DNA of 64,000 bases from an uncultured Lachnospiraceae bacterium (GTDB taxonomy: Bacteria; Bacillota; Clostridia; Lachnospirales; Lachnospiraceae). A program made the translations under genes and the position numbers. Location of the stretch: NCBI GenBank assembly GCA_910578825.1, contig CAJTSB010000014.1, positions 5,783 through 69,782 on the forward strand. The letters run 5' to 3'. Every line of letters starts with the position of its first letter. Within the stretch, counting starts at the first letter, position 1. Shown piece after piece: positions 11,834 through 34,244 of this stretch. The notes beneath the pieces were generated by a model. That model did not search any database, was not told the DNA's origin, and saw only the letters and a program-made list of their open reading frames with translations.

Positions 11834-12136
11834 TTATTCCTTATCAATGGTCAGAATATCTGCAAACCCGGTCACATCAAATATCTCCATAATGGTATCG
11901 TTGACATGGGTCACACGCATGCTGCCCTGTTTATTCATGGTTTTCTGCGCTCCTAAAAGAACCCTCAGCCCTGCTGACGACAGATAATCCAAAGACTGCA
12001 TATCAATGGTCAGTTCTTCTATTCCGTCAATAGAACCTTTGATAGCTATCTCAAGCTCCGGCGCTGTATTGGTGTCCAGCCTTCCTTCCAGTGCGAGATA
12101 TAAACTGTTTCCCTTTTGTGTTTTTGTAATTTTCAT
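11834..12136 (-). CDS. STAS-domain anti-sigma-factor-antagonist-like protein (SpoIIAA/RsbV family)
   Basis: 100 aa. The motif DYLSSAGLRVLL aligns with SpoIIAA FMDSSGLGVIL, placing Ser54 (codon 11975-11977) at the phospho-acceptor position. The stop lies 6 nt before the NRPS start. Confidence 0.85.
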   Translation of the reverse strand: MKITKTQKGNSLYLALEGRLDTNTAPELEIAIKGSIDGIEELTIDMQSLDYLSSAGLRVLLGAQKTMNKQGSMRVTHVNDTIMEIFDVTGFADILTIDKE

Positions 12137-12259: not shown

Positions 12260-12667
12260 CTATATGTTCTTTTTGATCTTTAATATATTTTTTCCCTCCC
12301 GGTATTCATAGGAAATATCGTCCATGCTCTTTTTGACCATATAAATGCCAAGACCTCCAATCTGCCGCTCTTCCGCAGAAAGGCTGATGTCCGGCTCGCG
12401 TGTTGCCAGAGGATCGTAGGGCGTTCCGTTATCGATAAAGGTAATCACCACTGCCAGAGGATTTTCCGTCACCTCCACGCGGACAGTGGCAGTGCCTGTT
12501 TTTGGATGATAGGCATAGTGAGCAATATTCCCGAACAGTTCGTCAATGGCAATATCTATCTGCATCTGCACCTTCATGGAACATTCCAGCCGCTCTAACT
12601 GCTGATTCACAAATTCTGTAACCTTTTCAATATTTTCAACTGTTGCGTCAATGATTAATTCCTTCAT
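12260..12667 (-). CDS. RsbW/SpoIIAB-like GHKL serine kinase (anti-sigma-factor type, HATPase_c_2-like)
   Basis: I moved the start to MKELIID at 12667, which is preceded by GGAGGGAATGGGAG. This removes the overlap with the PPTase gene. The N-box is DELFGNIAHY, G1 is IDNGTPYDP and G2 is IGGLGIYMVKK. Confidence 0.8.
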   Translation of the reverse strand: MKELIIDATVENIEKVTEFVNQQLERLECSMKVQMQIDIAIDELFGNIAHYAYHPKTGTATVRVEVTENPLAVVITFIDNGTPYDPLATREPDISLSAEERQIGGLGIYMVKKSMDDISYEYREGKNILKIKKNI

Positions 12668-12693
12668 CTTCTCCCATTCCCTCCACTTTCCTT

Positions 12694-13491
12694 TTATTTC
12701 CACCTGCATCCCGATGGCGTCCTGCTTTCAGTTCTTCCACTTTCCTTCCAGAAACACACTGCCGCACAATATTCCCCCAGCCGGTATTCCCTGAATTCAA
12801 ACTCCCCGGGACAGAGAGCCCGCGCCTCATCGTTCTTCCGGCAAAGGACAATCTTTCCCTCCGACGAAATGGTAATCTCAAAGGCGTCCAGAGAAAGCAT
12901 AAGTCCTGTCCCCACCGCCTTCAAAAAACTCTCCTTTAATGTCCACAACCGGGTAAACGCCTCATCCTGCCGTGTACTACCCTGCTGCCCGACAATAAAA
13001 TCATATTCTTTCCGGGTAAAAAAACGTTTTGCAAGATCCAGATCCGCCTTCTGCAACGGTTCAATGTCGCACCCTGTTTCCACACCTGCAAACACCGCCA
13101 ACGCCTTGTTGCCGGAATGGGACAGATTAAAATGAATATGCGGAAACCGGGGCAGATAAGGCTTTCCATTTTCCCTGTAGGACACCACTGCCTCCCGCTT
13201 AGACAATCCCCAGGCGGACAGCCCCTTATCTACTAAAATTCCCGCCCCCAGTGAAAGCCGTTTATCCCTCAAAAGAACATAGGAATCCACTTTTTTCTGA
13301 CGTTGATGAGACATGGTTTGGTAATAGTTGAAAAAGGTTATCTCATTCTCCAGCTCTCCCGTATCCATCCAATACAGAACGGCTCTGTCTTTTTCCAGCG
13401 GCACAGGGACATTGGACTGTCCGGCACAGGGAGGACATATAAACATCCTGCGCAGGCTGTGCAACACAGGCATCCGTCTCTCTGGTTTCAT
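12694..13491 (-). CDS. Sfp-type 4'-phosphopantetheinyl transferase
   Basis: 265 aa with FNLSHSGNKALAVF, GCDIE and WTLKESFLKAVGTG. The ATG at 13491 overlaps the MATE stop (ATGA), suggesting translational coupling. Confidence 0.85.
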   Translation of the reverse strand: MKPERRMPVLHSLRRMFICPPCAGQSNVPVPLEKDRAVLYWMDTGELENEITFFNYYQTMSHQRQKKVDSYVLLRDKRLSLGAGILVDKGLSAWGLSKREAVVSYRENGKPYLPRFPHIHFNLSHSGNKALAVFAGVETGCDIEPLQKADLDLAKRFFTRKEYDFIVGQQGSTRQDEAFTRLWTLKESFLKAVGTGLMLSLDAFEITISSEGKIVLCRKNDEARALCPGEFEFREYRLGEYCAAVCFWKESGRTESRTPSGCRWK

Positions 13492-15275
13492 CCTTCCTGC
13501 ATCCTTTCTGGTTTCGGTTCCATTTTCAGTTCCATAATCGTGTTATTCATATTCAGTACCCTCAGATACTGAAAGTCAGACATAATTTTCCTGATCAGGG
13601 CAATTCCGCCCAAGGCAATCTTCCCACTTTCCTCTTCCTGCGCCTGATATTCCATGGGATTAAATGGTACGCCGTCATCCCGAATCCGAAGAAGATAACT
13701 GCCGTCCTGAATGGTAAAGCTGATGTCGATAAAGTTTCTGTTATTCCCACGATAGCCATAACGGATAATGTTGGCACAAATTTCCTCAAGAGCCAGCCCG
13801 ATCAGCTTTGCGTCCTTTTCCCGGATGCCATTTTCCTCACAGAAGACGAACAGGGCGTCCCGGAGCTTTATCACATCTTCCAGGTGGTTTTCTATCGAAA
13901 AATCCAGACAGGTTTCCTTCGTTACTTCGGGAAGCATATATCTGCCGCCGCAAGGAAATCTACCGGTATGCTGTCCTACCATGCGATAAAGGACACACAG
14001 CAGGATTGTAAAGGCTTCGCTTATCACAGCCGCCACACACACACCGGGAAGCCCCATCCAGACCATTCCGACCAGCGTAAAAGGAACCACCACGGCAAAT
14101 CCCTGTAACACCGTGATTACAGTGGAAAGTCCTGGCTGCAGAATTGTCTGGTAATAAGACATTAAAAACTTATTATACACATAAAACAGGAAACTAAATG
14201 CAATGATACGTAGCTGCGGTATACACATTTCCAGCATCTGGCCTCCTGTGATGCCGAATAGCGCAGCAATCCACCGAGGAAACAGAAGAAACAGTAACAA
14301 AAGAGCTGCAATGGCAAAATAACTGTATGCCAGCACTTTTTTACACAGCGCACGAATCCCATAATAGTCCCTTTCCCCATAAAGTATTCCCGCAATATTG
14401 GGAATCAGGCCGATCACGCCTCCCACGCACAACTCTGCGATCAGAACCGCATTCGCACAAACAGAATAGACCGCCATGGCGTCATTTCCCAGAAACCGTA
14501 CGATTGCTGAATTGACGATTACAGACTCTAACGCAGACATCAGCGTGAAGGCCGCGCTGGGCACTCCTGCCTTCGCCGCCATCTTCACATAGCGTAACGA
14601 TTGCCTGGTATGTACCGAAAGCTTTAACATCCTGTTTTCAGACCGGAAATAAAAAATCACCGTCACCATGCCCACCAGATAACCGACCACCGTAGACAGG
14701 GCGCTTCCTGCCATTCCCATGTTGAAAACTTTAAGGAACAGAATATCCAGCGTCAGATTTACCCCATTAGCAATCACAAAAAGTGTACTCCCCAATTGGG
14801 GATGATTATCTGCATTCATAAAATAACAGAAAAGAATTGCAATGGTCAGAACCGGGATTCCGCCGAAGTTTACCGCAATATAAGGCTCTGCCAGCGCCGC
14901 CATCTGCTCATTTCCGGCAAGGGAATCAGCCAGCATTCCTGGCAGAAAAGGGGTAAGCAGCGCAAAGAGAAGGGATATGGCACCTCCCGCCGCCAGGGAA
15001 ACTGTAAATATGCCTCCCGCCTCCTTCAGCTTACGCTTTCCCAAAAGCACCGACGCCTCAGCCGCTCCCCCCATAGCCAGCATTAACGCTGGCATCTGAA
15101 GGAAAAGCAGCACTGGCATGGAAAGTTCAATAGCAGCCATAGCTTTGGGTCCTAAAATATTACCCACAATCATGCCGTCTACCACATTGCCAAGCTGCAT
15201 GGCCACAGTCATCAGCACTCCAGGCAGAATATACTGGTGAATCTTTTTATGAATTAAGTACGCATTTCGCTCCAT
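13488..15275 (-). CDS. Fusion protein: MATE-family efflux transporter + C-terminal GHKL (RsbW-like) domain
   Basis: 595 aa. Residues 1-~445 form a 12-TM MATE-like body (compare the second MATE at 25583-26926). Residues 447-595 form a soluble GHKL domain. Confidence 0.8.
   Translation of the reverse strand: MERNAYLIHKKIHQYILPGVLMTVAMQLGNVVDGMIVGNILGPKAMAAIELSMPVLLFLQMPALMLAMGGAAEASVLLGKRKLKEAGGIFTVSLAAGGAISLLFALLTPFLPGMLADSLAGNEQMAALAEPYIAVNFGGIPVLTIAILFCYFMNADNHPQLGSTLFVIANGVNLTLDILFLKVFNMGMAGSALSTVVGYLVGMVTVIFYFRSENRMLKLSVHTRQSLRYVKMAAKAGVPSAAFTLMSALESVIVNSAIVRFLGNDAMAVYSVCANAVLIAELCVGGVIGLIPNIAGILYGERDYYGIRALCKKVLAYSYFAIAALLLLFLLFPRWIAALFGITGGQMLEMCIPQLRIIAFSFLFYVYNKFLMSYYQTILQPGLSTVITVLQGFAVVVPFTLVGMVWMGLPGVCVAAVISEAFTILLCVLYRMVGQHTGRFPCGGRYMLPEVTKETCLDFSIENHLEDVIKLRDALFVFCEENGIREKDAKLIGLALEEICANIIRYGYRGNNRNFIDISFTIQDGSYLLRIRDDGVPFNPMEYQAQEEESGKIALGGIALIRKIMSDFQYLRVLNMNNTIMELKMEPKPERMQEG
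13491..13937 (-). other. GHKL/anti-sigma-kinase-like domain fused to the MATE C-terminus
   Basis: The N-box-like segment is LALEEICANIIRYGY (Asn retained). G1-like is LRIRDDGVPFNP. G2-like is ALGGIALIRKIM. The tail YLRVLNMNNTIMELK parallels YEYREGKNILKIKK of the stand-alone kinase. Confidence 0.7.
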
Positions 15276-15295: not shown

Positions 15296-18200
15296 TTATA
15301 TCTTTCCGTCAAAAAATCCCAGGGTTTCCAGCGCCTTTAAAGCATTGTGCAGATAATCCTTATCCGGCATGGGCCACTTAAAGCCCAGCCTGTAGAGTAT
15401 TTTGGTGGTAAAGCTGTTGTCTGCATCAATATAAACGCTTCCTTCCTCACGGTCTCCCGGCAGATAAGCAATCAGTCCGGAGATCAACTGGTTTTTATCC
15501 TCATCCTCCAAGGCCTTCTGCAAGCTTGCGCCAAACTCCTCATCACTTACGGTTTCTATGGCAATTCCCAGGCTGTTCATCTGCTCCACTACATCCGCCA
15601 TCTGAATCACATAACTACTGTAGGCATGGAACACACTGAAATCCCCTTCAGCCCCAGTAAGCCTTACAATCGCCTCCGCCGTAGAATCAATCGGGGAAAA
15701 CTCCGCCGGCATATCCAGCTGGGAAACCGGGAACTTTCCAAGAGCCACATACCCGCGCAGGGTACGCATAAACCCATTGGTAACGGAATTGATCTGGAAT
15801 TCTCCGTCACTGACACGGCTCATGAGATTTCCTACCCTTATCACCCGTCCTTTCATGCCTTTTGCGACGGCTGCCAATACTGCCTTTTCCGCACGGAATT
15901 TGGTATCAATATATTTGTTGGTGATACGCTGCCCGAAATCCAGTTCATTTTCATGGATTTTCTTTTCCTCCGGGAACATCTGCCCCACGTTTTCTCCTGC
16001 CACGCTTACGGTGGAAATCTGAATTAATTCCCTTCCCGTATCACGACACAGGCAGATCAAATGAAGAACGCCCTGATAATTAATCCGCTCCAAAGTATCA
16101 TCTGCGGAGAAGTGTTTTACGCACGCCGCACAATTTATCACCCGGGCAAAATCATATTGTTTCAGGAATTTTACCTTTTCCGCGTCCGTGATATCCCCTT
16201 CAATGACAACAATCCGGTTTCCGAAAAGTTCCTCATAAGGATTGCTGAAGTAATATACAAGCATACTTTTCAGCCTTTTTTCTGCTGAAAGAGCGCTGCC
16301 CCTCCTCAGCAGGCAGTATATGGTATTGTCCGTGGTTTCCACCAGCGTTTTTAAAATATGGGCGCCAAGGAAACCTGTGGCTCCTGTTAGAAGCACGTTG
16401 CCTACGGCTGACGGACGTACCTCATCTACATATTCCGGCGTATTATGCGAAAGAATCTGTCCAATGGAATCCTGCCCTAAATCCTCTTCCGCCGCCTGTT
16501 CTTCCATACCACTTTGCCCATCCTGGTTCTCGCGTTCCATGAGATACCGTTCCAGAGCCAGAGGGGTCTTATATTCAAACAGATCCGCATAGGAAACTCC
16601 AATCCCTGCACTCATGCATTTCATCGCCACTTTAGACGCTGAAAGGGAGGTTCCGCCATTTTCAAAGAAATCATCTTCTATACCGACTTTTTCCACTCCG
16701 AGAGCCATGGCAAAGATTTCACATAATCTGCGCTGTAATTCCGTGCGGGGAGCTACATAATTTCTGCTTTCCTGGGTGTAGTCCGGTTCCGGCAGCGCCC
16801 GTTTGTCAACCTTGCCGTTGTTGGTAAGCGGCAGTTCGGGCAGCTGCATCAACACCCCTGGTACCATATACGGCGTTAAGTATTTCTGCATAAAACAGGT
16901 CAGTTTCTGACTATCCACCTGCTGTTGCGCCACAAAGTAACCGCACAGGAACTGATTGGAATCCTTTTCTTTTACAAGCACAACACTTGATTTCACGCCA
17001 GGATACCGATTCATCACATTTTCAATCTCATCCAGCTCCACCCGCAGTCCCCGGAGTTTTACCTGATTGTCCATTCGCCCCATAAATTCTATCTTGCCAT
17101 GATGGTTCCATCTTGCAAGATCACCGCTTCGGTATGCCTTTTTACCCTCAAAGGTGATAAATTTATCTGCCGTCATTTCAGGTTTGCCCACATATCCCCT
17201 GCCTACGCCGTTTCCGATAATGAGCAGCTCTCCCGGTACTCCGGCGGGAAGCAGGTTCCGGTATTTATCAATCGCCATCATCTTAATATTTGCCATAGGT
17301 CTTCCTATGGTAATCTTCGTCCCGGTCACCTGCTCGAAGGCACATCCGATTGTGGTTTCCGTGGGACCATACCCGTTAAATATGATGGGCGCTGTTCCAA
17401 GGGACATGATTTTCCCATAAAGAGCATCAGGAAACGCCTCTGCGCCCACATTAAACACCTTTATCTGTGACAGCGCTTCCTTCATTTCCGGCATATCAAT
17501 AATATTGATAAGGAAGGAAGGCGTACAAGTCATCATATTCACTCCATGAGCCAGAACCAATTCCGAAAGCGCAAAAGGATTATGGATTTCCTCTTCATTG
17601 GCCATACACACTGTAATACCGTGATACAGGGGGATGCACTCCTCCAGTATGGACACGTCAAAGGTAATGGCAGCAAAGGCCAGGGATACCGTGGCATGAT
17701 CTATATAGGACTGCGCCTCCACATTGTAGGGATTGCCATCCACATAATTCACAAGGTTTTGGTGCTCAATCATAACACCTTTGGGTTTGCCGGTGGAACC
17801 AGAAGTATAAATGCAATAGCACAGATTTTCCGGTCGGATGTCTATCTGAGGATTTTGAATATTCCCCCCTTCCTCCAAAAGCTCTTCCAGACAAAGGACT
17901 TTTGCCGCAATCCTGCCCAAAAGCTGGCCGCGCTGGCTAATTAGTTCCTTCGGCATGATCACAAACTCCGCACCGGAATCCTCCAGTATATAAATAATTC
18001 GCTCATCCGGATATTCCGGATCAATGGGCACAAAAGCCCCTCCAGCCTTCATGATTCCCTGCCTTACGGCATACACATCCACCGTCCGGGGCATCATCAC
18101 GCCCACCATCCGCTCCATGTGCAGCCCCATGTCCAGCAGGTAGTTGGCAATCTTGTTGGCATTTTCATTCAGTTCGCGGAACGTCCGCATTTCCCCGTCC

Positions 18201-21200
18201 GCAATCACAGCCGTCTTGTCCGGGTGCAGCGCCACCTGACGTTCAAAAAGGACATTGGCCGTTACCTGTTCCACCGGATAGTCCGTTTCATTGTACCCTT
18301 CCAGTTCCCGGCGGGCTTCGCCGCTTAACAGGGACACTTCCTTTAAGAACCTCTTATTACAAAATTCCTCCACTGCAACGGCAAAACTATCCACCAGTCC
18401 CGCAATGGTGCTTTCCTCGTACATATCGCTGCGGTACTCGACCTGGTAACAGATTTCATCTTTATTAACCGCCACATCTACAGACAGAGGCGCTTTCGCC
18501 GTATCCAGACGCAGCTCCTCCAAAATTGCTTTTTGCCCGGCAATCTCCTCAAACTGGAAATCATCTCCCTGAAATGCAAAGAGAATATCCGCCTTAATTC
18601 CATATGCCCTACTGATCTCTGCGAAAGAATAAATATCCGCATTCATACTGTTCAAAAGCTGCTCCCCGGTTTCTTTCAGATAACTGTCGATTTCCTGCTC
18701 TCCGTCAATATTACAGTACACAGGAAGGGTTTTCACCAACATACTGATGACCGAAGCCAGCCGTGAATCATTCCTTCCATTATAAATCGTGGTAAACACA
18801 GCCTCATCCTTATATACATACCGTCCTGTCACGAAACCAAAGGCAGCGGTGAACAGCGTATTCATGGTAACCTGCTTTTCCTCACAGAACGCCCGAAGGG
18901 CATCCATATTCACCCTGATATCCCTTCTGTACAATCCCACCGATGCGGTCTCATTCTTATCCCGTGCAGGAAGGAAATCCGTATCACAGCCGGAAAACAC
19001 AGAATCATAGTATTCCCTGGCACGGATATACTCTTCTCCCTGCAAGGCTTTTTGCTCCACTAAAGCCGCCTCGAAACCGGAAAAGCTTTCCGCCGTCAGT
19101 TTCCTGCCTTCATAAGCCGCGTTCATATCGCGGATAAAAATACCGCAGGATGTTCCGTCACTGATAATATGGTGAAAATCCAGGAACAGATAATTTCCCT
19201 CTTCCGTCTCATACAGCTCTATACGGAACAGTCTTTCCTCCATAAGCTGATACGGGCGCACCAGTTCTTCCCTGTTCAGTCGGTTGTTTATTTCTACCTC
19301 AAAAGACGCATTATCGTTTCGTTTCTGCCGGATATCACCTTTTTCATCCATAAATAATGTTGTCTTGATATAAGGATGAGCGGCAACTGCCTCCTCTGCC
19401 GCCTTTTTCAGCCTGGGCAGTTCCACCTTTTCATCCAGGCAAAACAGAAACGGAATATTGTAGATCGTGCTTCCCGGATTGGCGGCACACTCTACAAAGA
19501 TACCATTCTGGGTCTGGGTCAGAGGGTAAGCATCCTGTATCTCAAAAGTTTCCCCTTCTCCCCTATTCCGAAGAAGTTCCTCCAGCTTTTCCACCGTATT
19601 ATATTCCTTTAAATCCTTATTTCGCACCACCACGCCTTCAAAAGTTTTGGAAAGCAATGCGTTTAGCCGCACCGCGCCGATGGAGGTAAGTCCGGCCCGA
19701 TAAATGTCCGTGGACGCGCCAAATTCCCTGTGTCCAATGACTTCCGCTACGCATTCAAAAATCCTTTGCTGCACGGGGCCTGCCGGCTCCTTGCGTTCTT
19801 CTTTCTTTCGTTGCGGCATGGGAAGGGCTTTTTTATCTACCTTCTGATTCTGATTCAAGGGAATTTTGTCAATCTGCATAGTAACGGCCGGAACCATATA
19901 GGGCGGCTTGCTCTCCATAATAAACGCATTCATCGCCTCCACATCGACCTGCACCGCAGCTACCACATAAGCGGCAATATACTTTCCGCCGCCTGGCTCA
20001 TCAAAAGCAACCACCGTTGCGTCTGAAATTCCCGGGAACTTCCGTATGATTTCCTCCACCTCGGTAAGCTCAATACGGAACCCCCGAATCTTCACCTGTC
20101 CATCCCGGCGTCCGATAAACTGGATATTTCCATTCGGCAGGAAACGCACAATATCCCCTGTGTGATATGCCCTGCGGTATCCTTCCGCATCAGAGAAGGG
20201 ATTTTCAGAATATGATTCCGCCGTCTTTTCCGGTCGATTGAGATAGCCTCTGGACACCTGGTATCCTGAGATCCACAATTCTCCCGGAACCCCTGCCGGA
20301 ACCCTTCTCCCGCAGCTGTCCACCACATACAGTTTCATATTGGAGAGCGGTTTGCCGATGGGAAACTCTTCCTCATAGCGTTCCAGACAATAGGCAGTGG
20401 ATAAAATCGTACATTCCGTAGGTCCATACACATTATAATATTTTGTGCCTCCGGCAGGCGCAAAAGGAGTCAACGCCTCTCCGCCCATGGACAGATGCTT
20501 TAAATTTCCGCACTGTACGCTTGTGGCAAATGCCCGCCCAATCTGAGTAGTCATAAAGGCATGGGTCACTCTCTGTTTCTCAAAATACCTGTTTAACTCA
20601 TTTAAATCCAGACGAATGGACTGATCTATAATACATACCGACGCCCCGCCGGTGAGTGCCGGATAAATATCCATCATATGAGCGTCAAACCCATAGCTGG
20701 CATAAGCCGCCACCCTGCCTTCCGGCTGCAGATCGTAATATTCTCTGTACCACTGGCAGAACGCCATCAGATTCCGGTGCTCCAACATACATCCTTTGGG
20801 CACGCCGGTGGAGCCTGAGGTATACAAAAGAATAAACAAATCCTCCGGTTTGGGCGGACAGGGAATCTCATCTTTCTCCACTTTCGGAAGTTCAGGAATA
20901 TCTTTTGTCAGCAGAATCTTCCCCTGATATCCTTCTACCAGATGTAAAAGCTCTTCCTCGGCAATGAGGAGTTGTGCGTCTGCATCCTGAATCATAAAAG
21001 ACAACCGCTCTTTGGGGTATGTAGGATCCAGAGGCTGATATGCCGCCCCCGCTTTTAAGATTCCCAGAGAGGCCAGAACCATATGCTCACATCGCGGAAT
21101 CAGCACGGACACTGTCTGTTCCCTGCCAATGCCCATTCTCGCAATATAAGCGGCCAGACGATCCGTAATCTCATCTGTCTGAGCATAGGTATAAGTTTTG

Positions 21201-24200
21201 TCCAGATAAATAACTGCAATGTCATCCGGTCTGTTTCCGACCTGTTCCCGGAACAGATCCACAACCGTTTTTGTCCTCTCAAAAGGAACTTCCGGTCCAT
21301 GAAATCTATCCAGCAGCTGGACGTCGGATTCCGAAACCAGAGAAATCTGATGCAAACTCTGACAGGAAATCATGCCCTGCAGTACCTGCACCAGCATCCT
21401 TGACAAGCCCCTTGCCGTCTTTTCACTGTATAAATCCCTGCGGTAATCTAAACTAATCTCATAACCGCCCTGCCCCTTCATTACCATCACGGAAATATCC
21501 GCCTGCACCTGCCCGGTTGAAAGAGGCTGCGCCGGACACCTTTTTCCATCCAGGGACAATCCTTTCAGCATTTCTCCCTGATAAACAAACAAAATATCGG
21601 AAGCAATATCGTAATCCCTTGCCAGTTCTTCAAAAGATATCACATCGTGTTCCATGGTTTCATAAAAATTCTTCTGGAATCCCTGTAAATACTCCTCCAC
21701 GACCATGCTTTCTTCCCAGGACTGATATATGGGAAGCGTCCGCACAAACATTCCCACAGATTCCGCCAGCTCTGTACAATGCCTTCCATTGTTGACGGTA
21801 CAGAACAGACTCCGGTTTCCTCCTGTATACTTTCCAAGGGCATAGGCAAAAGCCCCCAGAAACAGCGTATTTTCTGAAATTCCCTTCTGCCTTGTAAACT
21901 GCTCCACCGCCATAATAGAAAGCTCTTCGCTGAGAGACATCCGCACGCTGCTGCTACTGGCGCCGGGCGATTTCATCCTGTAATCTTTCAACAGGGTCTC
22001 CCCCATCTCCCCATCATCCAGTTTAGACTTAAAGTATTCCCTGGCCGCCTGATACTCCGGCGTTTGTTTCACCGTTTCCTCATAAACGGACACATCCATC
22101 AGGGATATCTCCTCCTCCTTTGGCTCTTCGCCTTTGTAAAAGGTAGATATTTCTTCCAGAAATACACATACCGAGGTACCGTCAAAAATCAGGTGGTGTA
22201 CGTCAAAGAAAAAATATCTGCGGGTTTTATCACTGCCGTCCGCCATACGATATAAGGCCATGCGGTATAAAGGCTCCTGCCCCATAACAAAAGGACGAAC
22301 AAAGCCTTTCTCTGCTGCTTTCATGTCCCTGGCCGTACACTCCTGCACAGTTGCATCTAAAAATTCCGGGCACAGTTCCATAAGGGGGCTTCCCTCTCTC
22401 TGCACAATCTTCACTCCGAAAGCGGGATGCATGGCAACCGCCTTTTTTACCGCCTCCTTAAACCGGATCATGTCCATATGCTCCGGCAGCTCACAGCACA
22501 TGGGAATATTATACATCGTGCATTCCGGTTCACTAACGCACTCCAGATAGACCCCCATCTGAGAATCCGTAAGTAACCATTCCTTCCGTTCCCCATTATA
22601 CTCCCGTATTTTGTCCCATTCCACAGTACGCTCCCGGGCGCCTTCCATTTCCCGGTCTTCCTGCAACAGCAAAGCAATCTTCTCTGGCGTTCTGCCCTTT
22701 AAGACCATTCCCGGCGTCAGGGAAAAATCCGCAAGACATTCTACCAGTTTCAACACATTGATAGAATCCCCGCCCAACTGGAAAAAGTCATCGCCGATTC
22801 CAGTTCTTCCACAGTGCAGGATTTCCTCAAAGGCTTCACATATCCGTTTCTGCATCTCATTTTCCGGCTCTCTGTACACCCCTTTGTACTCAGAAATTCC
22901 CGGTGGCAAAAGCGCCGTCCTGTCCAGCTTTCCGTTTACATTCTTCGGAAGCTCCTCCATTCTTTTCAGAAAACGGGGAATCATGTAATCCGGCAGCGTC
23001 TCTCTCAGGCAGGCTCTGATATCCTCGGGCGCAACCTCCTCTCCTGCCACATAAAATCCACACAGGTAATTCTGCCCGTTTTCATCTTCAAAGGCTTTTA
23101 CTACGGCATTTTTCACTCCCGGAACTGCCGACATACGAATCTCAATTTCTCCCGTCTCCACACGCTGTCCGTTGATTTTTACCATCCAATCCCTGCGATT
23201 TACATAAATAAAATTCCCATCCGGCAGTTTCTTTCCAATATCCCCCGTATGCAGCAGAACCTTTCCGTCCTCCTTAAGCTCAAATGTCCGGGCGGTTTGT
23301 TCTTCCATATTCAGATAACATTCGCCAAGAACGCCAAGAACACAAATTTCTCCCTCTTCGCCATCAGGAACTTCCCTGCCCTGCTCATCCAGCAAAAACA
23401 TCTCCACGTCCTGCGCAGGCTTCCCAATCGGGGTATTCTCCATTGGTTCCTCTACTTTAAAAGCTGATACCATGCTCGTTGTCTCACTGCAGCCATATAG
23501 ATTGTACAGCACATAACCGTCACCACTTAACATGGATACCCGCTCACTTCCGGTCATTACCTTTTTCAGCGCTTTCCCACGATTCTTAAAATAACGCAGC
23601 ATCTGCGGGCTGATAAAACCGCAGGTAATTTCCTTTTTTGCATAATAAGACTCCAGCAGGCGCACATCCCTGCGAACCTCCTCGGAAAGCATATGGACGC
23701 AGCCGCCGCTGCTTAAAATAGCATAATACTCCAGCACCAACACTACAAAAGATAACGGCGCAGTGGCCGCCAGCCGTTCCTCTTTCCCGAAACCAAGGGT
23801 TTCGACATTCCTCATTGCTCCCATATAGAGGCTCCCATGGCTGTGGACAATTCCCTTGGGACGACCGGTGGAACCCGATGTATAAATGATCATGGCTCTG
23901 TCCCTGTCCGCCACTGTATATTCCTCAATCGGCTCATAGCGCCCGATATCCTCCATCCACTCACCATCAATCGTACATACTGCTTTGCAGTCTTCCCGGA
24001 TATAGTCAATTCTCTCCGGCGGATATTCCGGAAGCAGCGGCACATAAACCGCCCCGGCCATCATGATTCCGATTTCCGCTGCCACATATTCCATCCGCCT
24101 GTCCATACATACTATCACTGCCTGCCCGGTTATATCTCCCATCTCCAAAAGCTTTGCCGCAACCCGGCCGCTCCTACATGCAAGCTCCTGATACGTCGTA

Positions 24201-24283
24201 CTCCTCGCGCCGCCCAAATCAACAATCGCTGCTTTATCCGGCTGTTCGTCCACAATCTTTTTAAATCTGTCCAGAAAGTTCAT
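15296..24283 (-). CDS. Non-ribosomal peptide synthetase, A-T-C-A-T-C-A-T-R (three modules, terminal thioester reductase)
   Basis: I moved the start from 24502 to the ATG at 24283 (MNFLDRF), which has GGAGGA 7 nt upstream. A1 (~22898-24283) has IIYTSGSTGRPKG, NLYGCSETT and NVNGKLDR. T1 has FFQLGGDSINV. C1 has HHLIFDGTS. A2 (~19808-21280) has LLYTSGSTGVPKG and NVYGPTE. T2 has AGLTSIGAV. C2 has HHIISDGTS. A3 (~16778-18280) has CIYTSGSTGKPKG and NGYGPTETT. T3 has FFENGGTSLSA. R (~15299-16420) has LLTGATGFLGAHIL and YIDTK. Confidence 0.92.
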   Translation of the reverse strand: MNFLDRFKKIVDEQPDKAAIVDLGGARSTTYQELACRSGRVAAKLLEMGDITGQAVIVCMDRRMEYVAAEIGIMMAGAVYVPLLPEYPPERIDYIREDCKAVCTIDGEWMEDIGRYEPIEEYTVADRDRAMIIYTSGSTGRPKGIVHSHGSLYMGAMRNVETLGFGKEERLAATAPLSFVVLVLEYYAILSSGGCVHMLSEEVRRDVRLLESYYAKKEITCGFISPQMLRYFKNRGKALKKVMTGSERVSMLSGDGYVLYNLYGCSETTSMVSAFKVEEPMENTPIGKPAQDVEMFLLDEQGREVPDGEEGEICVLGVLGECYLNMEEQTARTFELKEDGKVLLHTGDIGKKLPDGNFIYVNRRDWMVKINGQRVETGEIEIRMSAVPGVKNAVVKAFEDENGQNYLCGFYVAGEEVAPEDIRACLRETLPDYMIPRFLKRMEELPKNVNGKLDRTALLPPGISEYKGVYREPENEMQKRICEAFEEILHCGRTGIGDDFFQLGGDSINVLKLVECLADFSLTPGMVLKGRTPEKIALLLQEDREMEGARERTVEWDKIREYNGERKEWLLTDSQMGVYLECVSEPECTMYNIPMCCELPEHMDMIRFKEAVKKAVAMHPAFGVKIVQREGSPLMELCPEFLDATVQECTARDMKAAEKGFVRPFVMGQEPLYRMALYRMADGSDKTRRYFFFDVHHLIFDGTSVCVFLEEISTFYKGEEPKEEEISLMDVSVYEETVKQTPEYQAAREYFKSKLDDGEMGETLLKDYRMKSPGASSSSVRMSLSEELSIMAVEQFTRQKGISENTLFLGAFAYALGKYTGGNRSLFCTVNNGRHCTELAESVGMFVRTLPIYQSWEESMVVEEYLQGFQKNFYETMEHDVISFEELARDYDIASDILFVYQGEMLKGLSLDGKRCPAQPLSTGQVQADISVMVMKGQGGYEISLDYRRDLYSEKTARGLSRMLVQVLQGMISCQSLHQISLVSESDVQLLDRFHGPEVPFERTKTVVDLFREQVGNRPDDIAVIYLDKTYTYAQTDEITDRLAAYIARMGIGREQTVSVLIPRCEHMVLASLGILKAGAAYQPLDPTYPKERLSFMIQDADAQLLIAEEELLHLVEGYQGKILLTKDIPELPKVEKDEIPCPPKPEDLFILLYTSGSTGVPKGCMLEHRNLMAFCQWYREYYDLQPEGRVAAYASYGFDAHMMDIYPALTGGASVCIIDQSIRLDLNELNRYFEKQRVTHAFMTTQIGRAFATSVQCGNLKHLSMGGEALTPFAPAGGTKYYNVYGPTECTILSTAYCLERYEEEFPIGKPLSNMKLYVVDSCGRRVPAGVPGELWISGYQVSRGYLNRPEKTAESYSENPFSDAEGYRRAYHTGDIVRFLPNGNIQFIGRRDGQVKIRGFRIELTEVEEIIRKFPGISDATVVAFDEPGGGKYIAAYVVAAVQVDVEAMNAFIMESKPPYMVPAVTMQIDKIPLNQNQKVDKKALPMPQRKKEERKEPAGPVQQRIFECVAEVIGHREFGASTDIYRAGLTSIGAVRLNALLSKTFEGVVVRNKDLKEYNTVEKLEELLRNRGEGETFEIQDAYPLTQTQNGIFVECAANPGSTIYNIPFLFCLDEKVELPRLKKAAEEAVAAHPYIKTTLFMDEKGDIRQKRNDNASFEVEINNRLNREELVRPYQLMEERLFRIELYETEEGNYLFLDFHHIISDGTSCGIFIRDMNAAYEGRKLTAESFSGFEAALVEQKALQGEEYIRAREYYDSVFSGCDTDFLPARDKNETASVGLYRRDIRVNMDALRAFCEEKQVTMNTLFTAAFGFVTGRYVYKDEAVFTTIYNGRNDSRLASVISMLVKTLPVYCNIDGEQEIDSYLKETGEQLLNSMNADIYSFAEISRAYGIKADILFAFQGDDFQFEEIAGQKAILEELRLDTAKAPLSVDVAVNKDEICYQVEYRSDMYEESTIAGLVDSFAVAVEEFCNKRFLKEVSLLSGEARRELEGYNETDYPVEQVTANVLFERQVALHPDKTAVIADGEMRTFRELNENANKIANYLLDMGLHMERMVGVMMPRTVDVYAVRQGIMKAGGAFVPIDPEYPDERIIYILEDSGAEFVIMPKELISQRGQLLGRIAAKVLCLEELLEEGGNIQNPQIDIRPENLCYCIYTSGSTGKPKGVMIEHQNLVNYVDGNPYNVEAQSYIDHATVSLAFAAITFDVSILEECIPLYHGITVCMANEEEIHNPFALSELVLAHGVNMMTCTPSFLINIIDMPEMKEALSQIKVFNVGAEAFPDALYGKIMSLGTAPIIFNGYGPTETTIGCAFEQVTGTKITIGRPMANIKMMAIDKYRNLLPAGVPGELLIIGNGVGRGYVGKPEMTADKFITFEGKKAYRSGDLARWNHHGKIEFMGRMDNQVKLRGLRVELDEIENVMNRYPGVKSSVVLVKEKDSNQFLCGYFVAQQQVDSQKLTCFMQKYLTPYMVPGVLMQLPELPLTNNGKVDKRALPEPDYTQESRNYVAPRTELQRRLCEIFAMALGVEKVGIEDDFFENGGTSLSASKVAMKCMSAGIGVSYADLFEYKTPLALERYLMERENQDGQSGMEEQAAEEDLGQDSIGQILSHNTPEYVDEVRPSAVGNVLLTGATGFLGAHILKTLVETTDNTIYCLLRRGSALSAEKRLKSMLVYYFSNPYEELFGNRIVVIEGDITDAEKVKFLKQYDFARVINCAACVKHFSADDTLERINYQGVLHLICLCRDTGRELIQISTVSVAGENVGQMFPEEKKIHENELDFGQRITNKYIDTKFRAEKAVLAAVAKGMKGRVIRVGNLMSRVSDGEFQINSVTNGFMRTLRGYVALGKFPVSQLDMPAEFSPIDSTAEAIVRLTGAEGDFSVFHAYSSYVIQMADVVEQMNSLGIAIETVSDEEFGASLQKALEDEDKNQLISGLIAYLPGDREEGSVYIDADNSFTTKILYRLGFKWPMPDKDYLHNALKALETLGFFDGKI

Positions 24284-24454
24284 CTCTGTTTCCTCCATTA
24301 AAGTTTCACTCGCATAATTCGCTCGATAACATTTATAATAAGATAAAAACAGTTTACCAGAAAACTTCCTTATTTTTTTCCTAGTGAGAATACATTGCAT
24401 TTTTTTGAGCATAATTTGTCTGATCCCGGCTTTTTCCCTTTGTATGAATATAAC
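24284..24454 (-). promoter_or_regulatory. Promoter/leader region of the NRPS operon
   Basis: This ~170-nt AT-rich non-coding stretch lies between the upstream terminator and the NRPS start. Only weak sigma-70-like hexamers are visible (e.g. CTGGTA-17-TATAAA), so the promoter position is not resolved. Confidence 0.35.
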
Positions 24455-24487
24455 AAAAACAGTAATCTCTAAGAAATTACTGTTTTT
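24455..24487 (-). terminator. Rho-independent terminator after the CAP-domain gene
   Basis: The stem is AAAAACAGTAAT / ATTACTGTTTTT with a 9-nt loop. On the minus strand the hairpin is followed by TTTTTGTTATATT. It lies inside the spurious N-terminal extension of the NRPS ORF. Confidence 0.75.
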
Positions 24488-24523
24488 GATTTCGAAATTC
24501 ATATTCGATTTTTTCTGCCCGTC

Positions 24524-25507
24524 TTACAATTTAAAAAATTTCACCTGATAGGAAACCGTCTCGTCCAATCCGGTAATCTTCACCTTAAAGGTATCCCCCG
24601 CGCGATAACTTATATTTTTCGGTCGAAAAATAATACATCCCTGTTGTCCGTAATAACTGTTTTCCACATTAAAATAGCCGTTTGACTTCTTGCTGCTGAA
24701 CGTCCACTTTTTCGTCTTTTTTCCTCTTTTACGCGTAAGCGTGACCTTTACTTTTGACTCTTTGACCGGCTTTCCCATACTGATGCTCCACGGCATACTG
24801 TCAGAAAAATATTCTATCGGCATATTTTGCGCCGGCCACGCCACGCCGTAATATTGCGTATCCGTAAAGTTACCGTCGAATGCATACATCGCGGCGTAAT
24901 TATTCACAGAACCAAAGCCCGTTTTTTTCATGACCGGATTTAAAATCCAGCGTCTATGCCCGACACGGTCAATATTACTGACGTCGTCATCTGCCATCCA
25001 CTGCCAGACTACATTATAGGCAAGATTGCCAGACCATGAAGTCATTGCCAGATTGCTGGACCCCGCCCCCTCAAATCCCAGCTTATACAGAGCATTCGAC
25101 ATTTTATTCGGTTTCCGTGGAAAATGGGATAATTCCTGATTCGCAGCGTTGACCAATGCCGCAGCCTGGCATTTCTTGTTGTAGGTTTTGTCCAGTTTGA
25201 CATTTGCAGGTATCCCTGCTATGTAACGCATCGTATTTAAGGCTTTTAATCCCTGATTCAGAGAAGATTTTTTTAATTCTCCCGCCCGGTACGAAGACGA
25301 TTTCACGGAAGGTTTTTTCGCATAGTCTACCTGAGTGTTGATATCAAATTTATGATTTTTCACAAATTTGCGGATATCCTTCTGAGTATGATATTGCACG
25401 TTCATCCCGGTAGTTTTGGGTTTTGCCTGACAGGGAAATGATATTGAGGTTATCCCCAGCAGCAGAACCAGTAAAAAAGCCGACAACTTTGTTATGTTTT
25501 TTTTCAT
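24524..25507 (-). CDS. Secreted CAP/SCP/PR1-like domain protein
   Basis: 327 aa. It has a signal peptide (KLSAFLLVLLLGITSISFPCQA). The CAP-like core has LNTMRYIAGIP, NQELSHFP and GHRRWILNP. The C-terminal ~90 aa look like a beta-rich extra domain. Confidence 0.65.
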   Translation of the reverse strand: MKKNITKLSAFLLVLLLGITSISFPCQAKPKTTGMNVQYHTQKDIRKFVKNHKFDINTQVDYAKKPSVKSSSYRAGELKKSSLNQGLKALNTMRYIAGIPANVKLDKTYNKKCQAAALVNAANQELSHFPRKPNKMSNALYKLGFEGAGSSNLAMTSWSGNLAYNVVWQWMADDDVSNIDRVGHRRWILNPVMKKTGFGSVNNYAAMYAFDGNFTDTQYYGVAWPAQNMPIEYFSDSMPWSISMGKPVKESKVKVTLTRKRGKKTKKWTFSSKKSNGYFNVENSYYGQQGCIIFRPKNISYRAGDTFKVKITGLDETVSYQVKFFKL

Positions 25508-25582: not shown

Positions 25583-26926
25583 TTACACATCGGCCGACAA
25601 TCTCCTGTACTCCCTGCGGTAAAAGACAACGGAACAGCCCATGGCAATGGTCCATCCAACCGGCCATGCGCACCAGATGCCCATTGCAGAACCCATCGCA
25701 GCGGAAAAAACAAATGCCAGGACGACACGCAGAATCAAATCGGTAAACGTCGCCGTCATGAATTTTCGCATCGCGCTTACGCCGCGCAAAATTCCGTCTG
25801 CCACCAGTTTTGCAGATACTACAAAATAAAACGGAGACAAGATCCACAAAAACTGCCTGCCCGTCATCATTGCTGCGGCAGAGCCCTGCTCCATAAATAA
25901 AAGCAACAGATATTTTCCACAGAAAATATACAGTATACAGAACGGAATACACAGGCACCATACCATTTTTAAGCCCGCGTGAAAGGCTTCCCGAATACGC
26001 TCGTATTTACGCGCGCCAAGATTCTGCGCCGAAAAATTGGAAATCCCGTTTCCGATCGTGGTAAATGAAGTAATTACCAGATTATTTAACTTAACAGCGG
26101 CAGAATATCCCGCTATGACGGAGGCGCCAAATCCATTGATAACGCTTTGAATCATGATGTTTCCCACGGAAATAAAACTCTGCTGCAAAATACTGGGAAT
26201 GGCAACCACAAGGATTTTCTTCAGTATTGCCCAGTCAAATAACGGCGGTTTTTCCTGCACCGGAATCTGTCTGAGCCTCCCATACACTGTGAGGACAGCA
26301 AGCAGGCAGCTTACGCCCTGACAGAGAAAAGTCGCCCAGGCAACGCCCGACACGCCCATGCCAAATGCTTTTACAAACAAAATGTCTACTGCGACATTCG
26401 CACTGGAAGATGCAGCAAGAAAATAAAACGGCGTTCTGGAATCGCCCAGCGCAGAGAAAATTCCGGTTGCAATATTGTAGAAAAATACGAACGGCAGTCC
26501 CCACACATAAATTTCCAGATACAGGCTGGAATCTGCAAACAGCTCCTCCGGCGTATGGATAGACTGCAATAAGGGCTCGCAACCCAAAATACCTGTCAGC
26601 ATCAGTATTCCACAGAGCGCCGCACTGAACATGCAGGCAGTCGTCACCGTCGTCTTTACCCCTTTATAATCCTTCGCACCAAACATTTGCGAGACAATCA
26701 CGGAACACCCCATATTACAGCCAAATGCAAAAGCAATGAATATCAGGGTAATCTCATAGCTGTTCCCCACAGCCGCCAATGCATTTTCCCCGATGAACTT
26801 ACCCGCCACCAAACTGTCTGCAATATTATAAAGCTGCTGAAAAATAATGCTTCCAAACAGCGGAAGACAGAACTTCCACAGCACCGTCTGCGGTTTTCCC
26901 ACCGTCAAATCTCTGTTCATAATCAT
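25583..26926 (-). CDS. MATE-family efflux transporter
   Basis: About 447 aa with 12 predicted TMs. The typical N-terminus is TVLWKFCLPLFGSIIFQQLYNIADSLVAGKFIGENALAAVG. The start is ambiguous (26950, 26926 or 26920); GGAAAGGA sits just upstream of 26926. Confidence 0.85.
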   Translation of the reverse strand: MIMNRDLTVGKPQTVLWKFCLPLFGSIIFQQLYNIADSLVAGKFIGENALAAVGNSYEITLIFIAFAFGCNMGCSVIVSQMFGAKDYKGVKTTVTTACMFSAALCGILMLTGILGCEPLLQSIHTPEELFADSSLYLEIYVWGLPFVFFYNIATGIFSALGDSRTPFYFLAASSSANVAVDILFVKAFGMGVSGVAWATFLCQGVSCLLAVLTVYGRLRQIPVQEKPPLFDWAILKKILVVAIPSILQQSFISVGNIMIQSVINGFGASVIAGYSAAVKLNNLVITSFTTIGNGISNFSAQNLGARKYERIREAFHAGLKMVWCLCIPFCILYIFCGKYLLLLFMEQGSAAAMMTGRQFLWILSPFYFVVSAKLVADGILRGVSAMRKFMTATFTDLILRVVLAFVFSAAMGSAMGIWCAWPVGWTIAMGCSVVFYRREYRRLSADV

Positions 26927-26950
26927 AACGTCCTTTCCTGATTTACACAT

Positions 26951-30900: not shown

Positions 30901-31002
30901 GCGTGAAAATAACGCAAACGAGGCTGCTGCAACTAAGAGGAAGGTCAGCAATGTCTTCACGGGGGAGCGCAAAAGCGTCTTAAATGCAAGGGATTTTTTC
31001 AT
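27955..31002 (-). CDS. Large ABC transporter permease with two FtsX/MacB-type modules and two big extracytoplasmic domains
   Basis: About 1015 aa. The start is at MKKSLAF (31002), preceded by AAAGGAG. It has an N-terminal TM, a ~400-aa ectodomain, a 3-TM bundle (…YIGRNRKSYAIMRTLGVP…), then a second TM, ectodomain and FtsX bundle (…AFLRILGVTKKRA…). Confidence 0.8.
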   Translation of the reverse strand: MKKSLAFKTLLRSPVKTLLTFLLVAAASFALFSRVTDYVITSREAARAQSMYHGVAALDNSVEPIIMDYEYFVPDPKPWPTDEQLEEFASLPGVTLADIRYVTDGLVEDYRRVLSDEDSWMTANYVVEGTYDGYEEYDGEQDYSKLYLVFKDVKVYAGDIDIRNDEMKVLVQFEGDIAWKLSEKYSRSYFDALEKGKRYLSFGSYSERTGTAFELGEYMAEHDCLRMVDGLGDDYLETEEFSYYKGLIESVNQSMMTYDMVYTSDMRAIPYVNEHTLLVSKGRPLTAEDTDSCVVSELFLETYGLSVGDKINVKLGDRHASSGILGTRARDIGDIAQFNTSVELEIIGAYRYNNDDNERMNDFEWRFGPGTIFLHRSLLPVEIPEDYEISMGQFSVFIEDPNDIESFLEKAQPMAADLNLAMRFSDGGWAGMKDSIGSGSLTSLLTTVLYVLGAALALFLAAYLYIGRNRKSYAIMRTLGVPSKKARNSIVTPLIVLSLAAVAVGGLTGLFYTSSTVRKALEGMADSNMPEGVGYVPDVAVPIDAVILCLVLELMFIFLLTLFFVQRMKKTPPLELLHEEAGGAIKKGGIFANSFTAPKPRMDIADTAPVPAGLNLAKLSAIETIPARGKYNAFHQVITYILRHMRRSIGKTAVSLILTLVLAAGIGTFVMAKLAYQDACREMEVKGRANEFASTSIAELLNSDLVKDVYYYRRFDVRINAIGVRSAITFTNNLDRYLINGCKITYAQGYDSASFEETGGVCLLDKELFEELGIALGDTITMMSDDLYNFMPQVYEEDRLEAAIQRAGKPYKVVGFLETEDEDRGVGVFTVINDAAQNLYGQPFPVSYCEYTLADNQKLSDLESSLDQWRKEGMQYAQLGSFRVDSEPLKNARRVRDLLESLFPIAVAAAVLIGLFGPGLVILQLAREAAFLRILGVTKKRARCILVLEQIFLCIVGIILVALILAVFGSGLFVRGMETLAICWLLYFLACICGALAAAIQVTRYKVLELLQVKE

Positions 31003-31033
31003 GGTATTTTCTCCTTTCTCTCCTGTCACGTCC

Positions 31034-31696
31034 TTACAACGCCTGAAGTTTTCCGTCTCTCATCCGAAGCTGCACGTCCGCCATCTCAGCAACCTCCATA
31101 TCATGTGTTACGATCACGACGCAGTACCCTTTGTCATGTGCAAGGCTGCACAGAATTTCCATGATATTCTGCGTGTTTGCGCTGTCAAGATTTCCGGTCG
31201 GCTCATCGGCAAGCATAATTTTTGCACTGGATGCAAGGCTTCTTGCAATCGCTACGCGCTGCTGCTCCCCGCCAGACAGTTTCGATGGAAAACGCTCCAT
31301 CTGCTCCTTCGTGATGCCTACGCCCTCAAGCAGCTCCTGTGCCCGCGGCTTTGCCTCCTTCGGCGATACCCCGCGCAGCTCCATGGGGAAACAGACATTT
31401 TCAACGACGGTCATCAACGGGAAAAGATGAAATGCCTGAAAGATCATGGATATCCCTTCCCTGCGGTAACGGTCCAAATCAAGTCCTGCAAGGTTTTCTC
31501 CGTCAAAATCCACCTCTCCGTCTGTGGGCAGATCAAGCCCTGCAAGCAGAGAAAGCAGCGTAGATTTACCGGAACCAGACGGACCGATGATGGTATAGAC
31601 ATTCCCTGCCTCAAACTTACAGGAGACATCCGAGACCGCGGCTCTCTGTGTGTTTTTGTATTGATACGTTACGTTTTCCAATGTTAAATTTGCCAT
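31034..31696 (-). CDS. ABC transporter ATP-binding protein (MacB/LolD/FtsE type)
   Basis: 220 aa with Walker A GPSGSGKST, signature LSGGEQQRV and Walker B IMLADEPTGNLD. Confidence 0.9.
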   Translation of the reverse strand: MANLTLENVTYQYKNTQRAAVSDVSCKFEAGNVYTIIGPSGSGKSTLLSLLAGLDLPTDGEVDFDGENLAGLDLDRYRREGISMIFQAFHLFPLMTVVENVCFPMELRGVSPKEAKPRAQELLEGVGITKEQMERFPSKLSGGEQQRVAIARSLASSAKIMLADEPTGNLDSANTQNIMEILCSLAHDKGYCVVIVTHDMEVAEMADVQLRMRDGKLQAL

Positions 31697-31750
31697 ATTC
31701 CTGCTCCTTTACTTCATTATATTTGTCAACTCTGTATCCTGTTGCCATCT

Positions 31751-34231: not shown

Positions 34232-34244
34232 TGTCTCACCTCTT

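Follow-up and report, generated by a model that had tools for sequence, protein, structure and literature searches.

Peptide aldehydes of gut Clostridia inhibit host and microbial proteases, and whether such an aldehyde persists or is lost as an inert pyrazinone depends on its N-terminal cap. Among the described nonribosomal peptide synthetases (NRPSs) that end in a reductase (R) domain, AusA releases a dipeptide aldehyde (PMC8210680), N-octanoyl-Met-Phe-H was obtained from the Clostridium NRPS cluster BGC0001686 (PMC8518294), and ruminopeptin is a Leu-Glu aldehyde with an N-acyl group (PMC8518294, PMC12327764). The role of the N-acyl tail as a stabilizer was already discussed by Guo et al. 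2017, as cited in PMC8210680. Here, we describe NRPS1, a small R-terminated NRPS from a gut-associated genome of the Clostridia (an uncultured Lachnospiraceae bacterium), with relatives in metagenome-assembled genomes (MAGs) from the rumen and the human gut (Hadza). The gene lies in a 64,000-nt stretch of contig CAJTSB010000014.1, hereafter the window, to whose positions all coordinates refer. This locus illustrates one route to the cap, a dedicated loader made of an adenylation (A) and a carrier (T) domain, in which the A domain lacks Asp235 (GrsA numbering). With a probability of about 0.6, we read NRPS1 as the producer of an N-capped dipeptide aldehyde built on a starter without an amino group, because the loss of Asp235 and a change in the A5 core are conserved across a whole clade of domains at the loading position.

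Domain organization of NRPS1

NRPS1 is encoded on the minus strand at 15296-24283 (2995 aa, ATG at 24283, stop codon at 15296-15298). The Pfam matches (three AMP-binding, three PP-binding, two Condensation, and a C-terminal NAD_binding_4) gave the order A-T-C-A-T-C-A-T-R, where C is condensation, and all A, T, and C matches were above their cut-offs and co-linear, as in modular type I NRPSs. Contig CASLYT010000012.1 (MAG GCA_949399275.1) matches the window with 100% identity, and near-identical versions are present in two other MAGs and several read-set assemblies. The housekeeping proteins encoded in the window fall into protein clusters with entries labeled 'Lachnospiraceae bacterium'.

The mechanical open reading frame (ORF) is longer (15296-24502, minus strand, recorded as 3068 aa), but we rejected its N-terminal extension of 73 codons (24284-24502). 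A ribosome-binding site, GGAGGA, is located 8 nt upstream of the ATG at 24283, the closest homologs start with MNFLD, the representative of the NRPS1 90%-identity protein cluster has 2995 aa, and a terminator-like hairpin of 16 pairs (24454-24488, minus strand) falls inside the extension. Since all of these agree, the boundary at 24283 given in the initial annotation is the true start codon. The hairpin sits between NRPS1 and the upstream CAP-domain gene (see below) and marks them as separate transcription units.

All domains run along the minus strand. The loading domain A1 (22874-24283, 470 aa without insertion) is followed by the carrier T1 (22604-22873; Pfam PP-binding, with the serine motif GGDSI at 22760-22774) and by C1 (21284-22603; HHLIFDG at 22178-22198), which corresponds to the C domain at the start of the split relatives and for which elongation C domains were the best PDB matches. 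The second module is completed by A2 (19754-21283) and T2 (19514-19753; GLTSIG at 19676-19693), and the third comprises C2 (18254-19513; HHIISDG at 19154-19174), A3 (16784-18253), and T3 (16484-16783; GGTSL at 16643-16657). Both A2 and A3 have the canonical Asp235. The protein ends in the thioester reductase R (15299-16483). A motif search found the A3, A7, A8, and A10 cores intact in the A domains, including three SGSTGxPKG, HTGD or YxTGD, and NGK[LV]D[RK], together with the three carrier serines and two HHxxxDG; in A1 these cores read YTSGSTGRPKG, HTGD, and NGKLDR. NRPS1 is an intact assembly line.

The R domain matched NAD_binding_4 with 112.7 bits (cut-off of 20.1) and carries TGATGFLG (16364-16390) and YIDTK (15899-15913), the TGxxGxxG and YxxxK motifs of reductase-terminated NRPSs. 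Its best NCBIfam matches were the R region of AusA and TIGR01746 (see below for the score).

A loading domain with an altered alpha-amino site

We aligned the A domains with MAFFT against GrsA (PDB 1AMU chain A over residues 1-541, identical except for residue 2). In A1, position 235 is Val (NRPS1 residue 180, codon at 23744-23746, minus strand). HMMER, which pairs LSFVVLVLEYY of A1 with FSFDGSALDIF of LgrA, independently gave the same residue, so that neither automated alignment places an Asp at 235. The A4 string of A1, APLSFVVLVLEYY, spans 23723-23761, while its equivalents in A2 (FDAHMMD, 20669-20689) and A3 (FDVSILE, 17642-17662) contain the Asp. The A5 core of A1 reads NLYGCSETT (23477-23503, minus strand) instead of NxYGPTE. 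The 10-residue codes obtained from the MAFFT alignment were VVLFMGLSMK for A1, DAMFSGVILK for A2, DVLTNGGIGK for A3, and DIFHLAGIGK for the A domain of a second synthetase of the cluster (NRPS2, see below). The initial annotation, read by hand, agreed with these results in Val235, in the A4 strings of A2 and A3, in the A5 variant, in both R-domain motifs, and, to the letter, in the codes of the three NRPS1 domains; it had also set the lower coordinate of the A1 string correctly at 23723, although its upper one, 23752, fell short of 23761. The same A4 and A5 strings appeared in 12 out of 12 members of the NRPS1 90%-identity cluster, which come from independent assemblies, and Asp235 was likewise missing from 114 more distant homologs (see below), so that Val235 is neither a chance finding nor a sequencing error.

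The departure of A1 from ordinary A domains was also seen in the scores. Against TIGR01733, the NCBI model for amino acid adenylation domains (curated cut-off of 317.4 bits), A2, A3, and the A domain of NRPS2 scored 388.9, 378, and 337.5 bits, respectively, but A1 only 262.3. A1 falls outside this class on both features checked, the curated score and the Asp at GrsA 235. Nonetheless, TIGR01733 is still its best NCBIfam match, and acyl-CoA ligase models score lower. In PheA, the alpha-amino site is reportedly formed by Asp235 together with the main-chain carbonyls of Gly324 and Ile330 (Conti 1997). Both the loss of Asp235 and the A5 change, which is beside Gly324, map to this site.

The nearest solved relatives of A1 over the whole domain were the A domains of initiation modules, LgrA-A1 (226 bits), TycA, and GrsA. 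The same three came first when PDB chains were ranked by only the A4-A5 pocket segment, with no enzyme for keto or aryl acids among the matches to this segment. The A1 pocket is wholly hydrophobic, with no acidic residue at 235, 236, 239, or any other code position. Compared with LgrA-A1, which activates Val, L239, G301, and M331 are identical, while F/Y278 and M/I299 are similar.

A clade of Asp235-less loaders in gut and rumen genomes

A homolog search with A1-T1 yielded 120 proteins encoded in metagenomes and MAGs of the gut and rumen, none of them longer than ~950 aa; the full-length architectures were taken from the contigs (labels L and P designate loci and proteins of these relatives). 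The named sources were Lachnospiraceae, Oscillospiraceae, Eubacterium, Ruminococcus, Ruthenibacterium, and some Bacteroidales, plus single MAGs labeled Sphaerochaetaceae and Methanocorpusculum. Searching 1.84 billion representatives exhaustively with A1 in HMMER was uninformative for the clade, as the top 150 were mega-synthetases of 4-8 kaa (thousand amino acids) ranked by their summed domain scores. Position 235 could be aligned in 114 of the 120 homologs, and none had Asp there: the residue was V in 67, I in 27, A in 12, C, S, and M in 2 each, and T and N in 1 each. The Pro of YGPTE was equally absent from all 114, the motif reading YG[CQSMAL][ST]E. No code had Asp at 235 or 236, but a few had Asp or Glu elsewhere. 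In the full-length homologs the A domain begins within the first 11 residues, and where a C domain is present it comes after A-T. Many members are A-T followed by a thioesterase (TE) domain (P0008, P0024, P0091, and others), and in Ruminococcus sp. MAGs such loaders open NRPSs (P0029, L097). From these features, A1-T1 would be one member of a large clade of starter-loading didomains, shared by Firmicutes of the gut and rumen.

It is improbable that A1 still activates an amino acid, be it an unusual one, such as an aromatic amine or a beta- or N-substituted amino acid, or an ordinary one held in place with no salt bridge to Asp, in which case the product would be a tripeptide aldehyde. Some A domains for anthranilate or beta-amino acids do lack Asp235, the three solved relatives closest to A1 are all amino acid-activating, and a homolog of the same architecture in Blautia (L023) uses a canonical amino acid loader. 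However, the code of A1 is free of acidic residues, the shifted Asp of beta-alanine domains is absent both from A1 and from the 114 homolog codes, the Pro beside Gly324 has disappeared throughout the clade, and A1 scores below the TIGR01733 cut-off.

We consider still less probable that A1-T1 has decayed or is skipped, so that the line would start at module 2 and release a free dipeptide aldehyde that turns into a pyrazinone, as with AusA and the first gut clusters. A1 is certainly the lowest scoring of the A domains on TIGR01733, and A1-type genes are fragmentary or interrupted in some other genomes (the P0010 remnant and the broken gene in L096). Yet in NRPS1 none of the A1 catalytic cores is damaged, the serine of T1 and the HHxxxDG of C1 are equally intact, A1 is identical in 12 independent assemblies, the clade conserves the domain and keeps a hydrophobic residue at 235, and other relatives retain a complete separate gene tightly coupled to the NRPS.

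Regarding the incomplete genes themselves, P0010 (L093-L095) stands alone with 365 aa, and P0015 (L096) has 325 aa, the remainder of the NRPS being encoded by a separate ORF. Such isolated or interrupted loaders suggest that genes of this family often decay or are broken in assembly.

Split and fused relatives

The genomic context of the relatives indicates how the loader may be used. In L088, the gene for a stand-alone A-T protein (P0001, 65% identical) lies 22 bp ahead of a gene that begins with a stretch 60.6% identical to C1. In L092, a C-A-T-C-A-T-R synthetase, 38% identical to residues 569-2993 of NRPS1, is followed after 14 bp by an A-T-TE gene that is 48% identical to A1-T1. In L098, a C-initiated and R-terminated NRPS (3474 aa) is followed by A-T-TE, a free C-like protein, and a fusion of a MatE transporter with a HATPase_c_2 domain. 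Since these relatives encode A-T separately beside C-initiated, R-terminated NRPSs, A1-T1 fits a dedicated starter-loading, or capping, unit that in NRPS1 is fused in cis. The most apt description of NRPS1 is that of a C-A-T-C-A-T-R peptide-aldehyde synthetase onto which a trans-acting starter loader has been fused.

Fused forms were also found among the matches listed in a scan of genome contigs with the generic patterns YTSGSTGxPK and VKINGQRV, which provided L001, L023, and L038. L001, from a rumen Lachnospiraceae MAG, has a loader with V235 (code VALFMGNGTK) and an A2 code identical to that of the window. L023 (3917-12916), from an uncultured Blautia sp. in a Hadza human-gut MAG, has the complete A-T-C-A-T-C-A-T-R order with 40.7% identity to NRPS1. 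Module 1 appears to be exchangeable and to have been swapped between lineages.

Directly after the A-T(-TE) loader there is a free-standing protein in L089 (11905-12957, 350 aa) and in L098 (11470-12732, 420 aa). They share 28% identity, contain HxxxDG-like motifs (HGVTDGRG and HAIFDGRG, respectively), and have no Pfam match in the precomputed listing. They may be stand-alone condensation-like enzymes, and no homolog of them was found in the window.

Proposed product

In the route that we propose, A1 would adenylate a carboxylic acid lacking an alpha-amino group and load it onto T1, C1 would couple this starter to the amino acid selected by A2, and C2 would then add the one selected by A3. The R domain would free the T3 thioester by hydride transfer, and the N-capped dipeptide would leave as an aldehyde, or as an alcohol on further reduction, and could not cyclize to a pyrazinone; by analogy with the gut Clostridia aldehydes, its targets would presumably be proteases. 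The initial annotation had already proposed that the R domain releases an N-capped dipeptide. Its non-amino starter is strengthened as the best reading by the clade-wide changes at the alpha-amino site, while the identity of the cap, the activity of the R domain, and the choice of aldehyde over alcohol are what we infer beyond that.

Several observations weigh against this reading. The R domain scored 150.5 bits on TIGR01746, below its cut-off of 213.35. The loader of L023 is canonical, with Asp235, the code DVLTDGGIS, and YGPTETT; because of this Blautia homolog, the NRPS1 scaffold does not itself require a non-amino starter. The codes differ even among close relatives of A1 (VVMFVGFLL, VVMFFGLSV, and VILFCGIAMK), and since pocket residues vary in this way the specificity of A1-type loaders may be loose or diverse. 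Our literature search found no substrate assignment for any member of the clade, and a full-text search for the four 10-residue codes (A1, A2, A3, and the A domain of NRPS2) retrieved no relevant paper. Among the Pfam matches, no ketoreductase (KR) domain, or short-chain dehydrogenase/reductase other than the terminal R domains, was found in A1 or the cluster, which also counts against a 2-oxo acid in particular, and no precursor-supply gene in the cluster pointed to a particular acid.

Candidate starter acids

A small or medium hydrophobic acid is the most likely cap. To our knowledge, every characterized bacterial keto-acid module has an embedded or adjacent KR partner. An aliphatic residue at 235, typically Val, marks the A domains for 2-keto acids, in which the remaining code is close to that of the cognate amino acid (PMC10949194, PMC13643306, PMC10316625). 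A1 likewise has an aliphatic residue, Val, in place of Asp235, and the rest of its code, -VLFMGLSM-, is hydrophobic and shares L239, G301, and M331 with LgrA-A1, a resemblance judged residue by residue. Because of the Val235 rule and this LgrA-A1-like pocket we favor an aliphatic 2-oxo acid as a first guess for the cap, albeit a tentative one that falls short of even odds; taking 2-oxo and 2-hydroxy acids together, the chances are only slightly better. On the other hand, all the caps documented in gut clusters are of the fatty acyl type (PMC8518294).

A short, branched, or medium-chain fatty acid is somewhat less probable than these. If the starter were an ordinary fatty acid, the product would be a lipo-dipeptide aldehyde like N-octanoyl-Met-Phe-H or ruminopeptin, and NRPS1 would differ only in using an A-T loader instead of a starter C domain. 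This remains a serious but lesser possibility. Where gut Clostridia clusters have documented capped products, these are N-acyl dipeptide aldehydes (PMC8518294, PMC8210680), and mutanobactin, from an R-terminated line of a Firmicute, begins with decanoic acid on a starter module (PMC8210680). Fatty acids are also plentiful in the gut, the pocket offers no polar partner for a keto group, and a KR domain is missing. Nevertheless, L239, F278, L322, and M331 close the pocket to a Val/Leu size rather than leaving a long-chain tunnel, and the published rule ties Val235 to 2-keto acids (PMC10316625). A1 is, besides, an NRPS-type A domain and not of the type of OaaA or the fatty acyl-AMP ligases (FAAL): its best PDB matches were all NRPS A domains, headed by LgrA, and a kinship with OaaA, a characterized gut fatty-acid activator, was rejected (24% identity, 45 bits). 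NRPS1 does not belong to the starter-C type either, as it begins with A-T, and only the neighboring NRPS2 begins with C. Of the other classes of starter, an aryl-alkyl acid seems unlikely, and an amino acid even more so.

Neighboring genes

The cluster extends from ~6077 to 26950, on the minus strand. NRPS2 (7532-11827, minus strand) is a C-A-T-R synthetase of 1431 aa, with HHVIIDG in the N-terminal C domain. It is 48% identical to the A-T-R of L089 and ~32% identical to the C2-A3-T3-R of NRPS1. Among the PDB matches of its C domain, ObiF1 and two starter C domains, CDA-C1 and RzmA-Cs, came out nearest, if only weakly so. Other than T1, no donor carrier partner for this C domain was found in the window, and for this reason T1 might feed both synthetases. 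An apparent split of NRPS2 (291 + 1136 aa) in the sister MAG L083 was rejected, as it stems from a run of N at ~12284-12293 (window ~11200-11210) and not from a mutation. The NRPS2 ortholog of L089 has a single in-frame TAG in the C domain (~4513-4598, AFAQA*DLTEAA), also present in L091, from an independent sample, which could be either a pseudogene or a read-through site.

Around NRPS2, all on the minus strand, there are genes of the partner-switching kind: a SpoIIE/PP2C-type phosphatase (6077-7516, 51% identical to its L089 counterpart), a STAS-domain protein of the anti-sigma-antagonist type (11834-12136, 63%), and a HATPase_c_2 protein similar to the serine kinases RsbW and SpoIIAB (12260-12709, 44%). 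They are followed by an Sfp-type 4'-phosphopantetheinyl transferase (PPTase; 12694-13491, Pfam ACPS, HetI/AusB-like by NCBIfam) and by a 595-aa fusion of MatE with a C-terminal HATPase_c_2 kinase-like domain (13488-15275, by Pfam, with MATE as the NCBIfam match), probably an exporter with a regulatory domain. Full-length homologs of this fusion adjoin related NRPSs in L001 (37%), L023 (35%), and L098 (26%). The set of STAS, kinase, phosphatase, C-A-T-R synthetase, and A1-type loader recurs in L089 with 44-63% identity, and parts of the partner-switching/NRPS set recur in L001, L023, L038, and L097. No sigma-factor gene was found near the partner-switching set (6077-7516, 11834-12136, and 12260-12709). 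The module, consisting of the STAS protein, two HATPase_c_2 kinases (one of them fused to the MatE exporter), and the PP2C phosphatase, might govern both production and export.

On the other side of NRPS1, a CAP/SCP-domain protein of 327 aa with no NCBIfam match is encoded directly upstream, beyond the terminator (24524-25507, minus strand), and a second MatE transporter (25583-26950, minus strand, Pfam) is placed at the upstream edge of the cluster, where its membership is uncertain. Adjoining the cluster are a BlaI-type repressor, a BlaR1/M56 sensor-protease, an ABC ATPase, and a large FtsX permease (27955-34613, minus strand), which may form a sensing or resistance module. Apart from this BlaI/BlaR1 group with its ABC/FtsX pair, the remaining genes of the window are housekeeping ones (GOGAT, folate synthesis, and transport).

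All these elements could be joined in a single model, in which Asp235-less A-T units would be widespread and so far uncharacterized KR-less loaders of 2-oxo-acid starters in gut Firmicutes, giving N-(2-oxoacyl) peptide aldehydes with two electrophilic centers; T1 would serve C1 in cis and the C domain of NRPS2 in trans, and the embedded partner switching would govern production and export. Taken as a whole we regard this combination as rather unlikely. If true, the single T1 starter would yield two capped products, a dipeptide aldehyde and an amino aldehyde. The recurring link of partner switching and the MatE-kinase fusion hints at a control of otherwise silent clusters and could help to switch them on.

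Comparison with known systems

The initial annotation had contrasted the expected product with free-amine dipeptide aldehydes, but this contrast was overstated, as N-acyl dipeptide aldehydes (N-octanoyl-Met-Phe-H and ruminopeptin) had already been reported (PMC8518294). The N-acyl dipeptide aldehydes of gut Clostridia are, then, already known, and the part of greater interest is the uncharacterized clade of A1-type loaders. With more than a hundred protein clusters in gut and rumen metagenomes, one characterized member would annotate them all and would sharpen product prediction for clusters of uncultured Lachnospiraceae, Oscillospiraceae, and Ruminococcus.

Going by its published description, the R-terminated family of gut Clostridia (Guo 2017, BGC0001686) shares with NRPS1 the small size, the gut-type Firmicute origin, the terminal R domain, two amino acid modules, and a capped dipeptide aldehyde as the product, which for NRPS1 is a prediction. 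NRPS1 differs in that the cap would enter through an NRPS-type A-T fused in cis, and its cluster adds a second, C-A-T-R, synthetase and the partner-switching genes. Ruminopeptin (rup) of Ruminococcus bromii (Schneider and Balskus 2018), likewise compared by description, is also a predicted N-acylated dipeptide aldehyde of a gut Firmicute (PMC12327764, PMC8518294), although the amino acid codes of NRPS1 are different. As for AusA of Staphylococcus aureus, the best NCBIfam matches of A2, A3, and R were all regions of AusA, both proteins have a terminal reductase, and both clusters include an AusB-like PPTase. However, AusA is A-T-C-A-T-R, without a third, non-amino loading module, its free-amine product cyclizes to a pyrazinone, and the scores of NRPS1 on the AusA model are far below the equivalog cut-off of 2500 bits.

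Regarding the loader, the Ak/KAL domains for 2-keto acids (cereulide, valinomycin, cryptophycin, StsA, and Dol15D) have, like A1, an aliphatic residue in place of Asp235 (PMC10949194, PMC13643306). They belong to elongation modules with KR that provide ester-linked hydroxy acids, whereas A1 is a KR-less loading domain, and among the PDB matches A1 was no closer to keto-acid domains than to ordinary A domains. The A-T-TE enzymes for aromatic alpha-keto acids (quinone and furanone synthetases) have Val at code position 1 (PMC10316625), as does A1, and their layout is shared with members of the clade. Those enzymes act alone and dimerize two keto acids, while the A-T-TE genes of the clade directly follow C-initiated NRPS genes and A1 itself has no TE.

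Lipoinitiation through a starter C domain (surfactin, CDA, and the rhizomide synthetase RzmA) would lead to the same outcome, an N-acylated peptide, but NRPS1 begins with A-T and its C1 resembles an elongation C domain. Finally, in the OaaA/OaaACP/OaaC system of Coprococcus eutactus, an adenylating enzyme of a Lachnospiraceae loads a non-amino acid onto a carrier for a C domain (PMC13310621), as we propose for NRPS1. OaaA is, however, of the acyl-CoA-synthetase type, and the Oaa pathway has neither the R domain nor the amino acid modules that are present in NRPS1.

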